Source of the DNA: Promethearchaeia archaeon
Lineage (GTDB): Archaea > Asgardarchaeota > Lokiarchaeia > Sigyniarchaeales > SOKP01
Direction: 5' to 3'
Length of the DNA stretch: 64,000 bases
Assembly (NCBI GenBank): GCA_029856045.1
Contig: JAHQWG010000012.1
Location: forward strand, 128,001 to 192,000
In this document: one piece after another, positions 1 through 39,263 of the stretch
How positions within the stretch are numbered: position 1 is the first letter of the stretch
Layout of the letters: each line of letters begins with the position of its first letter
The notes under the pieces: model-generated
What the model was told of the DNA's origin: nothing
The model's database searches: none
Seen by the model: the letters and a program-made list of their open reading frames with translations, nothing else
Translations under genes and position numbers: made by a program

Positions 1-14
1 GGTGGTGATTAGAA

Positions 15-293
15 ATTAAAATAGTCACAGTAAATATACCAGAACCGTATATAAACGCCATTGATAAATTAACAGGGCATGAAGGTTTATATCCATCAAG
101 GTCCGAACTTATCCGGGTCGCTGTACGGGATTTTTTGCTTAAGGAACTCAGAATGGCAAGCAATCTTTCTCTTTATCAAAAAAGAACGCCTGAAGAAAAA
201 TTTGATCATGAAAATTTTGTTAGAGTTCCAGCTACCGATGTTGACTATGGGGGAGATAGAAATTTTAAAACCTTTAGGATTGTGAGAAAATAA
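15..293 (+). CDS. Ribbon-helix-helix (CopG/Arc/MetJ-type) regulator, probable ATT start; not in ORF track
   Basis: Manual translation: (M)KIVTVNIPEPYINAIDKLTGHEGLYPSRSELIRVAVRDFLLKE...FRIVRK*. RHH signature (N-terminal beta strand, YPSRSELIRxAVRD). In-frame TGA at 6-8; GGTGA at 4-8, 6 nt before ATT at 15. Confidence 0.85.
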   Translation: MKIVTVNIPEPYINAIDKLTGHEGLYPSRSELIRVAVRDFLLKELRMASNLSLYQKRTPEEKFDHENFVRVPATDVDYGGDRNFKTFRIVRK

Positions 294-446: not shown

Positions 447-1316
447 ATGTTAATAGTTGTATATTTTGATAAAATTATTGGACCTAAAGCAATCGCTAGT
501 AAGCCCGAAGATTTGATTAAAAACTTAAAAAAAGAGACCTTAAATCAAATTGTTTCTCTCTTAGATACTGGTGATGAAGGTTTTTTCACCCATGATTTTT
601 CTTCTGAACTTCGAACAGCAAATTGGATTTTTCGGGTACCATCTAGTTGGGCACGGGGAAGCATTGAACTAATTATGTTATCGGTAATTATTCAAAAAGA
701 AATTGAAATTAAAGAATATCAATTAGAAATGAAAAAATTTATTGATCAAATCATAAAAATAGATGATTTATATAAAGCGTTTTACATACACAATCCGAGT
801 TTAATGCATAAAACAGAGATTCAAAAAAAATTTAAAACTCTAAATGGTAAATTAGACAAATTATATAAAATCCTGTCGCTTAAGAGTGTGGAAACTGCAG
901 GAAGGTTAATTAAATTAGAAGATTTTCAAAAAAACAAAATCATTTCTGTTCCAAAAATGATGTTAATAAATTTAAAAAAATTAATTAAAAATAAAAAAAA
1001 TTTATTTATTGTGCATAGAATACGGGGCGATTCTCTAAAAATTGATGTAATTCCAGTTACTTCGAAAGAAATAAATAAGTTGGAAATTATTTTTGGTGTT
1101 GATATGACGCCAGCTATTATAAAAAGAATAAGTGATATCTTTTCAAAATATGAAATTTCATTAGTTTTTACGTCGGGAATCTGTCAAGAGGCAGAAAAAT
1201 GTATTTATGAAGTCTATGTTGAGCTTTTAAATATAAATGATCTTGAGGATTTAAAAAATGAAATCTATGAAATCGAAGGAATTATCGATATTCAGACTGA
1301 AAAATTATCCACTTAG
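447..1316 (+). CDS. Longin/uDENN (NPR2-like) N-terminal domain fused to C-terminal ACT-like domain
   Basis: N-terminal 'YFDKIIGPK' and 'SSWARGSIELIMLSV' are shared with 54240..55316. The C-terminal ~80 aa 'LEIIFGVDMTPAIIKRISDIFSKYEISL...YEVYVEL...LKNEIYEIEGIIDI' has an ACT beta-alpha-beta-beta-alpha-beta pattern. Confidence 0.6.
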   Translation: MLIVVYFDKIIGPKAIASKPEDLIKNLKKETLNQIVSLLDTGDEGFFTHDFSSELRTANWIFRVPSSWARGSIELIMLSVIIQKEIEIKEYQLEMKKFIDQIIKIDDLYKAFYIHNPSLMHKTEIQKKFKTLNGKLDKLYKILSLKSVETAGRLIKLEDFQKNKIISVPKMMLINLKKLIKNKKNLFIVHRIRGDSLKIDVIPVTSKEINKLEIIFGVDMTPAIIKRISDIFSKYEISLVFTSGICQEAEKCIYEVYVELLNINDLEDLKNEIYEIEGIIDIQTEKLST

Positions 1317-1583
1317 TGAAATTTATTGCGTAAAAATACTAAAATTAATAGTGGAGATATTAAAAATAAGAAAAAATTCCTTTTTTTTAAAAAAACAATC
1401 AAATTTTTACCCATATTATGTTATCATAAAGATCCTTCTAAAATAGCCTTGAAACCGTTATAAATAAAAATTAAAAATAAATTATATTAATTTTGAAATA
1501 CTAAATATTTATTAAAGGAAATCATTAGAATTAATTTAATAATCAATTAAGCCAATTTAAAAATAGGTATTTCTTTTACAAAT

Positions 1584-2129
1584 ATGTCAACAAAAAGAAC
1601 ACTTATCTATAAAGTTTGTGTTATAGGCGATGGAGGAGTAGGAAAAACTTCCTTGGTTCTACAATATACAGAGAAAAAATTTACCGAGCAATATGTGATG
1701 ACGATTGGAAGCAATTTCGGGATTAAGAAAGTTGAGATTCCAGAATATCCTGATTTAGAAGTACGATTACAACTCTGGGATTTGGCTGGACAACGTCATT
1801 TTTCATTTGTTCGCCCTCCCTTTTATCGTGGAGCTACAGCATTAATGTATGTTTTTGATGTTACACGCCGGAGTTCGTTCACAAACCTCCCGAATTGGAA
1901 AGAAGAGGCAGAAAAAGTAATTGGGCAGAAAACATCAGTGATATTAGGAAATAAGATTGATTTAGCCCAAGATTATAGGGAGGTAGGGTCAGAAGAAGGG
2001 CGGGCAATTAGTGAAGAATATGATTCAGGAGGCTATTTTGAAACTTCTGCAAAAGAGGAAGTCAATATTAAGGAGGCTTTTAATACGCTTGTATCAACAA
2101 TTCTAAATAAATTAAATTTTGAGTTATGA
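1584..2129 (+). CDS. Rab-like small GTPase
   Basis: GDGGVGKT, MTIG, WDLAGQ, NKID and ETSAK motifs; no C-terminal Cys prenylation motif. Confidence 0.95.
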   Translation: MSTKRTLIYKVCVIGDGGVGKTSLVLQYTEKKFTEQYVMTIGSNFGIKKVEIPEYPDLEVRLQLWDLAGQRHFSFVRPPFYRGATALMYVFDVTRRSSFTNLPNWKEEAEKVIGQKTSVILGNKIDLAQDYREVGSEEGRAISEEYDSGGYFETSAKEEVNIKEAFNTLVSTILNKLNFEL

Positions 2130-2337
2130 AGAATAATTTACGAGAAAAAAGTAAATTTTATTATTTAATTGAGATTTCTCCTTGATTATATTTTAATAAC
2201 CATTTATTTCTGCAATAATTATATTTTGATAAATCTAATTTTATATAAGATTATTCTTTATTATTGTACCTAGAAGTAGTGATTTTTTTAATATTTCATA
2301 AAAAGTATAAATATCAAAAAATTGGTTGAAAACTGAG

Positions 2338-3054
2338 ATGTTTGGAGGCGGAAAAATTCAATATGATCGAGCTCTGACTATTTTTTCTCCAGAGGGAAGA
2401 TTATATCAAGTAGAGTATGCATTAGAGGCAGTTAGAAGAGGAACCTTAATTGTAGGAATAAAAACAGAAAATGATGTGTGTTTAGCTGCACAAATAAAAG
2501 TTGCATCTACTTTAATGGAAATTGATTCAATCGATAAGTTATTTAAAGTTGATGAACATATAGGGTGTGCAATTTCAGGTTTACATGCAGATTCTAGGGT
2601 ATTAATAAACTATGCAAGGGTACAAGCTCAATCTTATAGGCTAGTATATGATGAACCAGTAAGATTAAATATGTTAGTAAAATCTATTGCGGATTTAAAA
2701 CAAATGTATACACAATACGGTGGAATAAGACCCTTCGGTTGTAGTTTATTTTTTATTGGTTATGATTCAGATGGACCTCAGATTTATACTACATCTCCAA
2801 GCGGGATTTATCGTAGTTTTAAAGCTTTTGCGTTAGGTTCAGGAGAGACTACTGCACGGGAATTTATTGAGAAGGAATATAACCCAACATTTTCATTGAA
2901 AGAAATTCAATTGCTTGCAATAAGAACTATAAAGGAAAGTGTTGAAGATGACATAACAGCAGAAACTATTAAAATTTCTCAAATCTCTAGTGAAGATAAA
3001 AGATATAAATTGCTTTCTAAATCTGAAGTTGAAAGTTTAATAGCAGAATTATAA
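2338..3054 (+). CDS. psmA: Proteasome alpha subunit
   Basis: YDRALTIFSPEGRLYQVEYA alpha signature, GGIRPFG. ATG at 2338 preferred over TTG at 2326. Confidence 0.95.
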   Translation: MFGGGKIQYDRALTIFSPEGRLYQVEYALEAVRRGTLIVGIKTENDVCLAAQIKVASTLMEIDSIDKLFKVDEHIGCAISGLHADSRVLINYARVQAQSYRLVYDEPVRLNMLVKSIADLKQMYTQYGGIRPFGCSLFFIGYDSDGPQIYTTSPSGIYRSFKAFALGSGETTAREFIEKEYNPTFSLKEIQLLAIRTIKESVEDDITAETIKISQISSEDKRYKLLSKSEVESLIAEL

Positions 3055-11743: not shown

Positions 11744-11948
11744 AAGAGTGAAACATAGATAAAATGATTTTAACTTTTTTGCAGTAATTAATTTCAAAAA
11801 AATGAAATAAAAACGAGACAAAATTTCATAAATTTTTGTCGGCAATAAAAACTCATTAATTTTGGGGATATTTTTGGACTGTGGTCAATTTCCACTGCAA
11901 AATTAAAATAAGAGAAAAATATAATAAAAAATAAAAAGGTGAAAAATA

Positions 11949-12140
11949 ATTCAACTCTCTTCTGTTTGCTTACCTGAAAAATATTTAGAAATATTGGAAG
12001 TTTTTGTCACTGAAGGTCGATTTCCAAATAGATCAGAAGCTATTCGTGTGGCAATTCGAGATTTAATTAAAAAAGAATATTTATTAGAAGAAATATATAA
12101 AAAATCCCAGCTCCAATACCAGAATAGCCAGAAAAATTAA
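11949..12140 (+). CDS. Ribbon-helix-helix regulator, probable ATT start; not in ORF track
   Basis: (M)QLSSVCLPEKYLEILEVFVTEGRFPNRSEAIRVAIRDLIKKEY...KN*. Classic G.FPNRSEAIR.AIRDL RHH motif. In-frame TGA at 11940-11942; GGTGA at 11938-11942, 6 nt before ATT at 11949. Confidence 0.85.
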   Translation: MQLSSVCLPEKYLEILEVFVTEGRFPNRSEAIRVAIRDLIKKEYLLEEIYKKSQLQYQNSQKN

Positions 12141-38939: not shown

Positions 38940-39263
38940 TTATGGAGGAACCAATGGCCATGGAGTATATAATTCCCATTGGCTACTCTGGATAATCAAT
39001 TGTGATTCAGCTGTAAGTTTCTGATACTCAGGATCCAAGACAGCTTTTGTTACCGTTTTTTCCATTTTAGCCATACTCTCCCATTGGAATTCTATAATAA
39101 GGGTACTCATATCTTGGGTCCCGATTAAGTGACGATATCGCTTCTTGTTGTCAGGAAATCCAAGCTTCTTTTCGATTTCATTGAATTTTTTGTTAATCTC
39201 TTCTAACTCATCCCATTTATCCTGATAAATTTTCTGAATTTGACGCCATATAACTATTACCAT
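38940..39263 (-). CDS. Small dimeric alpha-beta barrel (NIPSNAP-like) protein
   Basis: 'TLIIEFQWESMAKME...DPEY' pattern; GGTGA-N6-ATG start. Confidence 0.55.
   Translation of the reverse strand: MVIVIWRQIQKIYQDKWDELEEINKKFNEIEKKLGFPDNKKRYRHLIGTQDMSTLIIEFQWESMAKMEKTVTKAVLDPEYQKLTAESQLIIQSSQWELYTPWPLVPP

Follow-up and report, generated by a model that had tools for sequence, protein, structure and literature searches.

The RHH gene with which the analysed window opens is best explained, with a probability of roughly 70%, as a functional gene that is started at ATT and whose 5' end was rebuilt by an imported tract. The ATT start itself is very probably real; what is unusual at this locus is the allele that carries it, in which a stub ORF and an import are combined. 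The window is the whole stretch of 64,000 nucleotides that was analysed (G000:C15:128001-192000; its position 1 corresponds to L001 1501). G000 denotes this genome, a MAG of 55 contigs from a host belonging to the Promethearchaeota (Lokiarchaeia-type Asgard).

Reading frame and Shine-Dalgarno sequence

The window opens with GGTGGTGATTAGAAATTAAAATAGTC. In frame 3, the codons read TGG (3-5), TGA (6-8), TTA, GAA, ATT (15-17), AAA, ATA and GTC, and the frame stays open up to the TAA at 291-293. Between the upstream TGA and the beta strand only TTA, GAA and ATT are found, i.e. no in-frame ATG, GTG or TTG. The codon reading is thus in agreement with the sequence-only reading, which had described an RHH frame closed by this TGA and devoid of canonical starts before the beta strand. 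The first in-frame canonical start is the TTG at 135, and its use would delete the entire RHH domain. For the product started at ATT, the predicted N-terminus is (M)KIVTVNIPEPYINAIDK.

The single 16S rRNA of G000 ends in GGATCACCTCC. Since the GGTGAT in front of the gene is complementary to the AUCACC in this 3' end, it constitutes a perfect Shine-Dalgarno (SD) sequence of 6 nt. The spacing of N6 between GGTGA and ATT lies within the modal GGTGA-to-start distance of N5-7 in this genome. The identical arrangement GGTGA-N6-ATG, which had been reported for the gene at 39263, was found there as described, on the minus strand. In its anatomy, the start of the regulator combines a strong SD with a codon that would be a weak initiator.

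Two other readings of the 5' end were tried and rejected. With 11 nt between it and GGTGAT, the ATA at 21-23 does not fit the spacing that G000 uses. A decoding of the TGA as Sec or Trp was considered, as a tRNA-Sec gene exists, but a second TGA and a TAA are located within 8 codons upstream and no start is found.

Table 1. Features of the RHH locus and example ORFs with a putative ATT, ATA or ATC (ATH) start. Positions refer to the window; for ORFs elsewhere in G000 the contig is given.
Feature	Position	Strand	Remark
Full-length RHH-1 ORF	15..293	+	92 codons + TAA; RHH domain, variable linker, conserved C-terminal hairpin FVRVP...FKT(F/Y)(R/K)I
TGA closing the RHH frame upstream	6..8	+	More same-frame stops (TGA, TAA) within 8 codons upstream
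ATT, sole plausible start codon of the full-length RHH ORF	15..17	+	Aligned with ATG/TTG/GTG/ATT of 40+ orthologues
Shine-Dalgarno GGTGAT	4..9	+	5 nt before ATT; inside the final codons of the 26-codon remnant ORF
TAG, stop of the remnant ORF	10..12	+	2 nt upstream of ATT; TAA in the diverged relative L114
Remnant ORF tail GGT GGT GAT TAG	1..12	+	ATG outside the window at -69 (L001 1432 = G000:C15:127932)
Copy 2 of the 72-nt direct repeat	15..86	+	Copy 1 = L001 1432-1503, 83 nt upstream
Divergent tract, SD through codon 37	4..125	+	About 16% off the congeners' allele, synonymous only; sharp right boundary
Example ORF with ATH start	C35:99888	-	SD + ATH
Example ORF with ATH start	C51:179189	+	SD + ATH
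Example ORF with ATH start	C51:47922	-	SD + ATH
Example ORF with ATH start	C51:22752	-	SD + ATH
Example ORF with ATH start	C27:337390	-	SD + ATH

Start codons of orthologous genes

The codon at the aligned Met position was tabulated for the related genes. Among 29 related genomes it is ATG in 17, TTG in 7, GTG in 1 and ATT in 4, and a sister family adds four more cases of ATT. A wider search covering the 79 closest loci gave 70 ATG, 8 TTG and 1 GTG. ATT is present at this position in all three g14 species (as GGAGG-N8-ATT), in all four g21 species and in G008, so that it recurs in orthologues of three other genera. One of the g14 species is represented by a single-contig genome, in which a stop is located two codons upstream of the ATT. 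For two single-contig relatives, G032 and G038, the orthologues show GGAGG-N8-ATT and GGTG-N7-ATT. A canonical alternative is missing in two of the three g14 species, in G008 and in G043 (g21); in the remaining g14 species, G028, an in-frame TTG lies inside the SD, and the other three g21 species have a GTG two codons upstream. The codons following ATT in these orthologues vary synonymously, with the protein being conserved.

A second RHH_1 gene of 63 aa lies 12 kb away in the same window (11938-12140, plus strand). Its start region reads GGTGA-AAAATA-ATT, where the TGA belonging to the motif is in frame, and a canonical start is first reached 15 codons in. GGTGA-N6-ATT precedes this gene in four of five congeners; it is common to G001, G002 and G004, and G003 has ATG. 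In the orthologues of this second gene from G024, G023, G016, G009 and G020 (L138-L141, L144), the sequence (A/T)TGGTGAT... was observed. The SD-like GGTGAT here shares bases with a canonical start, and the usual Met position, occupied by ATT or ATA, follows 4-5 codons later. Due to this overlap the true start is ambiguous in these five genomes.

ATT, ATA and ATC starts across the genome

For the genome-wide comparison, the test set comprised the 5'-end codons of ORFs of at least 150 codons that lack a canonical start both upstream and within 8 codons, and an SD was counted when a 5-mer of GGAGGTGAT was present at the right spacing. The share preceded by an SD amounted to 1.1% overall, 2.9% for ATT (OR 3.1, p=4e-5), 3.6% for ATA (OR 3.8) and 4.1% for ATC (OR 3.9), and of the codons that most frequently follow an SD, no other was enriched. 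At ORFs of at least 60 codons the signal was diluted, with 45/3975 for ATT compared to 0.84% overall. Furthermore, the counts of ATT and ATA peak at N6 behind GGTGA, a position at which the control codons show no peak. In total, an SD precedes ATT, ATA or ATC in about 46 long ORFs that lack a usable canonical start, which is about 35 above chance; the number of SD-led canonical starts is 303. From these counts, about 10% of the SD-led genes in G000 appear to start at ATH codons. A Ras-family GTPase and an SDR keep their P-loop and Rossmann motif, respectively, only if they are read from ATT.

The candidate ORFs with an ATH start, five of which are listed in Table 1, include a Ras-family GTPase, an SDR, an ABC ATPase and an acyl-CoA synthetase. 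The N-terminus of another one, of 788 aa, resembles by eye a pyruvate-formate-lyase-type enzyme.

Initiation of E. coli infC and pcnB takes place at AUU, and NCBI table 11 lists ATT, ATC and ATA as alternative initiators. Like these two genes, the regulator is intact and under selection, its sole start is a near-cognate AUU behind a good SD, and its N-terminus is missed by gene finders limited to ATG, GTG and TTG. In contrast to both, the host is an archaeon, in which start selection depends on aIF1/aIF2 and not on IF3, and ATH starts occur genome-wide in ordinary genes of many kinds. A further difference to infC is that the ATT of the regulator is not conserved in the family, since most orthologues (17/29 and 70/79) and the congeners have ATG. 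In the feedback of infC, IF3 rejects its own AUU. Such a loop cannot apply to the regulator, because its product is a DNA-binding RHH protein and not an initiation factor.

The sequence-only reading had proposed that non-AUG initiation keeps this transcription factor at low or conditional expression, as known for infC and pcnB. One part of this reading was supported: ATT is the only start option and the gene is selected; ATH starts are moreover enriched across the genome. For a special device of the infC/pcnB kind no support was obtained, given that about 10% of SD-led genes appear to have ATH starts and that the congeners have ATG, and the ATT may or may not hold the factor at low or conditional levels. 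Altogether, initiation of the regulator at ATT is well supported, and it would probably belong to a routine minor start class instead of being a throttle specific to the RHH gene.

Duplication and stub ORF upstream of the gene

Upstream of the gene, a partial copy with an ATG is located, the first 69 nt of which lie outside the window. This copy spans 72 nt corresponding to codons 1-24 and is 92% identical to copy 2 (Table 1). It starts with ATG, encodes MKIVTVNIPEPYINAIDKLTGHEG and continues with GGT GAT TAG (+GD), resulting in a stub ORF of 26 codons. Besides ATG versus ATT, the two copies show 5 differences, all of them at synonymous third positions, and they hold identical runs of up to 29 nt. 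The offset between the copies, 83 nt, cannot be divided by three, which puts the full-length ORF into another frame and deprives it of its ATG. The promoter, the AAGGAG site and the ATG context before copy 1 are the same as those of the intact gene in the congeners. The earlier reading had thus missed that the ATT sits in an 83-nt duplication/import allele, whose ancestral ATG, SD and promoter are kept on the stub.

The stretch is contained in public runs from 15 studies, with no RNA run among those listed. Logan contigs of four runs (marine sediment 2016 and 2021, salt marsh 2019) were aligned on L001:1100-2100, and all of them span the duplication, in which neither a gap nor a joint occurs. 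Two show no difference from the window, which may have been built from them, one shows 7 SNPs and one 3 SNPs; X6 and X12, which come from two different studies, are not possible sources of the assembly. The earlier reading had left room for reads with ATG at 15-17, but the contigs of the four runs have ATT at this position. A search with a 20-mer from the gene additionally gave L114, a JGI metagenome contig that combines this architecture with a more diverged background. The linker of L114 is GGTGATTAAAAATT, i.e. the stop of the stub changed from TAG to TAA, and GGTGAT and ATT were kept. Both of these elements are unchanged in all five sequences bearing the duplication. Since the four runs and L114 share the structure, the duplication belongs to natural populations and not to one assembly.

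Two mechanisms by which the stub and the full ORF could be joined were rejected. For a structured RNA or a bulge-helix-bulge intron removing the 83 nt no support was obtained, the fold of L001:1385-1560 giving z=+0.56. For a programmed frameshift from the stub into the ORF, no slippery heptamer was found, and TGA occurs in the target frame at L001 1497 and 1506.

Comparison of the alleles and proposed origin of the tract

In the congeners G001, G002 and G004 the gene is one uninterrupted reading frame of 92 codons with an ATG start (AAGGAG-N12-ATG). As this plain ATG gene has the same upstream context in all three, the 83 nt represent an insertion specific to the G000 allele. From GGTGAT through codon 37, this allele diverges by about 16% from the congeners without any amino-acid change, and from codon 38 on the divergence drops abruptly to about 3%. 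Within codons 2-37, G000 and L114 are 97% identical, compared to about 84% between G000 and the congeners. The flanks of 1.2-1.4 kb show a different grouping, with L114 falling among the genomes with the ATG allele (93-96%) and G000 being the outlier (86-94%).

Since the strong divergence is synonymous only, the tract most likely stems from a diverged relative. A search for the donor with an exact 25-mer of the 5' end of copy 2 gave 0 matches in genome contigs and metagenome contigs, and a search with a 20-mer of the tract returned only L114, which itself bears the same allele. From the mosaic alone we infer that the tract was imported from such a relative together with its own SD and ATT.

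According to the proposed course of events, a tract of about 125 nt, reaching from the SD GGTGAT and the ATT through codon 37, would have been joined behind resident codon 24 with a net gain of 83 nt. The left joint would have formed at a short similarity, and a homologous crossover at codons 37/38 would have produced the right joint. The resident promoter, AAGGAG, ATG and first 24 codons would have been left behind as the 26-codon stub, which stops 2 nt before the ATT. Afterwards, the allele may either have been passed between lineages or have been retained as a polymorphism.

In naturally transformable bacteria, events with one homologous anchor and one microhomology joint are known as homology-facilitated illegitimate recombination. 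No such event is known to us from Asgard archaea. The locus resembles it in the right junction, a clean homologous crossover at codons 37/38, in the non-homologous left junction with a short GA(G/A)GG(T/C) similarity, and in the combination of a partial duplication with a tract of foreign synonymous divergence. In contrast to the bacterial cases, the mechanism is deduced here from sequence alone.

Proposed translation of the regulator behind the stub

The regulator would be translated from ATT by ordinary SD-guided initiation. Since copy 1 is preceded by the conserved promoter, the stub and the regulator are presumably located on one mRNA, and ribosomes finishing the stub ORF may also reinitiate at the ATT. 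In Haloferax, coupled genes showed termination-reinitiation when their distance was between -8 and +10 nt, and coupling was lost by 22 nt (Huber et al. 2023, PMC10666635). The final 15 nt of the upstream gene were sufficient for it (PMC10666635). An ATT start in E. coli reaches about 0.3% of ATG, a value which the same article takes from another study (Hecht 2017 as cited in PMC10666635). The locus resembles the coupled pairs of that work (PMC10666635) in its same-strand ORFs, the gap of +2 nt and a downstream SD that falls within the final codons of the ORF in front. It differs from them in that this ORF is no partner subunit but a remnant, 26 codons long, of the regulator gene itself, and in that the downstream start is ATT. 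Because a ribosome translating the stub could equally occlude the SD and thereby inhibit initiation at ATT, a real contribution of coupling to the expression of the regulator is put forward tentatively, at somewhat less than even odds.

A more far-reaching interpretation would be that the stub-plus-ATT allele is an adaptive expression variant, the output of which is set jointly by the weak ATT and by reinitiation after a leader ORF derived from the gene itself, and which moved by recombination between species of the genus or is an old polymorphism beside the ATG allele. We regard this as unlikely.

Selection on the displaced ORF and on the stub

In the RHH domain (codons 2-47), the comparison of G000 with L114 revealed 5 synonymous and 0 non-synonymous substitutions over 32 and 106 sites, respectively, and one further synonymous SNP was found in run X6. 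Under neutrality, a ratio of 6:0 has a probability of about 1.6e-4, in a test that rests on 6 substitutions. The C-terminal linker is variable, as it likewise is among the ATG alleles. The full ORF is intact in 5/5 of the duplication-bearing sequences. In terms of substitution pattern, purifying selection on the full ORF is thereby shown. Taking the 6:0 pattern together with the invariant GGTGAT and ATT, the full ORF is presumably still translated, which is possible from ATT only. As a result that would speak against a functional ATT start, the sequence-only reading had named orthologues that all use ATG combined with relaxed selection on this copy; the data point in the opposite direction on both counts, with ATT in other orthologues and 6:0 in the RHH domain.

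The same observations bear on the interpretation of the locus as a young pseudogene, in which the 83-nt duplication frameshifted the gene, translation is confined to the 26-aa stub, and the ORF behind it is, along with its SD and ATT, an untranslated relic that has so far escaped decay. The frame is indeed disrupted relative to three congeners and about 110 other orthologues, and the RHH paralogues of G000, at least five in number, could cover a loss. A relic would, however, hardly have gained 6 synonymous changes in its RHH domain since the event without a single non-synonymous one. In addition, the allele is common to lineages whose flanks are 7-14% different, GGTGAT and ATT are invariant in five sequences, and a perfect SD at modal spacing is expected by chance in only about 1%. 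A pseudogene is therefore considered improbable.

The direct repeats could also be taken as the basis of a reversible switch, in which recombination between the 72-nt repeats deletes the 83 nt and converts a weak state (stub and ATT) into a strong one (ATG). The repeats, 92% identical, 83 nt apart and with identical runs of at most 29 nt, would allow this, and excision anywhere in the repeat register restores an intact frame. Nonetheless, no joined form was present in the contigs of the 4 runs, although contigs hide rare variants. The ATG allele of the congeners is not a product of such a collapse, as it is without the divergent tract in codons 25-37, and the repeats recombine less readily owing to their five synonymous mismatches. 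Overall, a switch of this kind is very improbable.

The stub showed 1 synonymous and 3 non-synonymous changes (I3T, G21R and H22Y), a pattern which fits neutrality and would be expected without constraint on the peptide. This is of relevance for the idea that the 26-aa stub, comprising the beta strand and helix 1, is a functional microprotein poisoning the dimer of the regulator. The stub retains the ancestral promoter, SD and ATG and is open in all five sequences; 3/4 of the observed changes alter the peptide, though, and one of them (I3T) affects the core of the beta strand. A role as microprotein is judged to be highly improbable.

The explanation of the structure as an assembly artefact, in which two strain variants were joined and the true gene starts at ATG, would agree with copies differing at synonymous sites only, as two strains would, and with the fragmentation of the MAG into 55 contigs, but has a practically negligible probability in view of the independently built contigs of four runs spanning the junction gap-free with different SNPs, of X6 and X12 (2 different studies) as contigs that the assembly was not built from, and of the same structure in the JGI contig L114 from a more diverged relative.

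Protein family and gene neighbourhood

The 92-aa product started at ATT matches Pfam RHH_1 over residues 4-41 with 27.0 bits (cut-off 20.5, E 3.9e-6). The AF2 model of the monomer shows a pLDDT of 66 with helices at 12-19 and 29-56. The low pLDDT (<50) of the putative strand region 1-7 would be expected for a strand that forms only in the dimer. A PDB sequence search with the family profile gave no match. As far as sequence comparison reaches, the gene is a member of a well-conserved Lokiarchaeial RHH family with a C-terminal hairpin extension and without a solved relative.

The best NCBIfam matches of the regulator were CdrS of haloarchaea (NF058555) and aCcr1 of Sulfolobales (NF053762). With both it shares the small RHH protein, a predicted N-terminal beta strand and a sequence resemblance over about 40 residues. 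In contrast to true members of these families, it scores 30.8 bits against an equivalog cut-off of 100 for CdrS and 21.2 bits against a cut-off of 60 for aCcr1, and it has an additional C-terminal part of 45 aa with the conserved hairpin. The gene of CdrS adjoins ftsZ2 and is co-transcribed with it. At the locus, no tubulin/FtsZ or cdv gene was found within about 8 kb on either side. The regulator is a member of the RHH superfamily and fails the tests for CdrS and aCcr1 on score as well as on context.

Within about 8 kb, the neighbours comprise a 289-aa ORF without a Pfam match, a Ras GTPase, a proteasome alpha subunit, a 472-aa protein and an Arf-like fusion. The RHH gene is thus placed among eukaryote-like trafficking genes (window 447-3054; L125 4657-7218), including a V4R protein. 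Two of the neighbours recur beside the RHH gene in related loci, namely the 289-aa ORF in 25/118 and the 472-aa ORF in 36/118. The 36-aa and 52-aa ORFs of the locus with canonical starts are absent from the protein collection.

A search for operators upstream of the RHH gene yielded weak AT-rich inverted repeats only. In the g14 orthologues (L026, L028), a conserved block TTAACACA(C/T)AATTCTGTA was noticed about 45-65 nt upstream of the ATT, which may be a promoter or an operator. Several related genera carry 2-3 full-length RHH-1 paralogues (G018:C64:31425-32536; G006:C46:11778-13811; G016 on three contigs), some of them in tandem less than 2 kb apart.

Implications for annotation and minor observations

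If only ATG, GTG and TTG are allowed as starts, the regulator, the second RHH gene and about 35 other genes lose or truncate their N-termini. Among the affected genes are small GTPases, which are studied as eukaryote-like signatures. In the reviews covered here, archaeal starts are given as AUG, GUG and UUG only, and SD motifs are called rare in Lokiarchaea. A start class consisting of an SD plus AUH is absent from those reviews and would change this picture if it is routine. The ATG allele and the stub-plus-ATT allele, which occur in near-identical contexts, additionally provide a natural pair for the effect of an ATT start and an upstream ORF on archaeal expression.

The gene for aIF1 (SUI1; L160 1384-1773, G000:C27:190727-191116) contains an in-frame GTG 11 codons before ICPKC and an ATA 5 codons past this GTG. 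Going by these codons, its start is canonical or ambiguous, and an ATH start is not needed.

ARAGORN detected only 25 tRNAs in G000, none of them for Met, with the genome being rated 100% complete; a tRNA-Sec (TCA) was found. Most tRNA genes of G000 are probably intron-bearing or otherwise atypical. In the 16S-23S spacer (L113 1642-1779, G000:C27), a tRNA match of 138 nt follows directly after the 16S rRNA, presumably with an intron inside.
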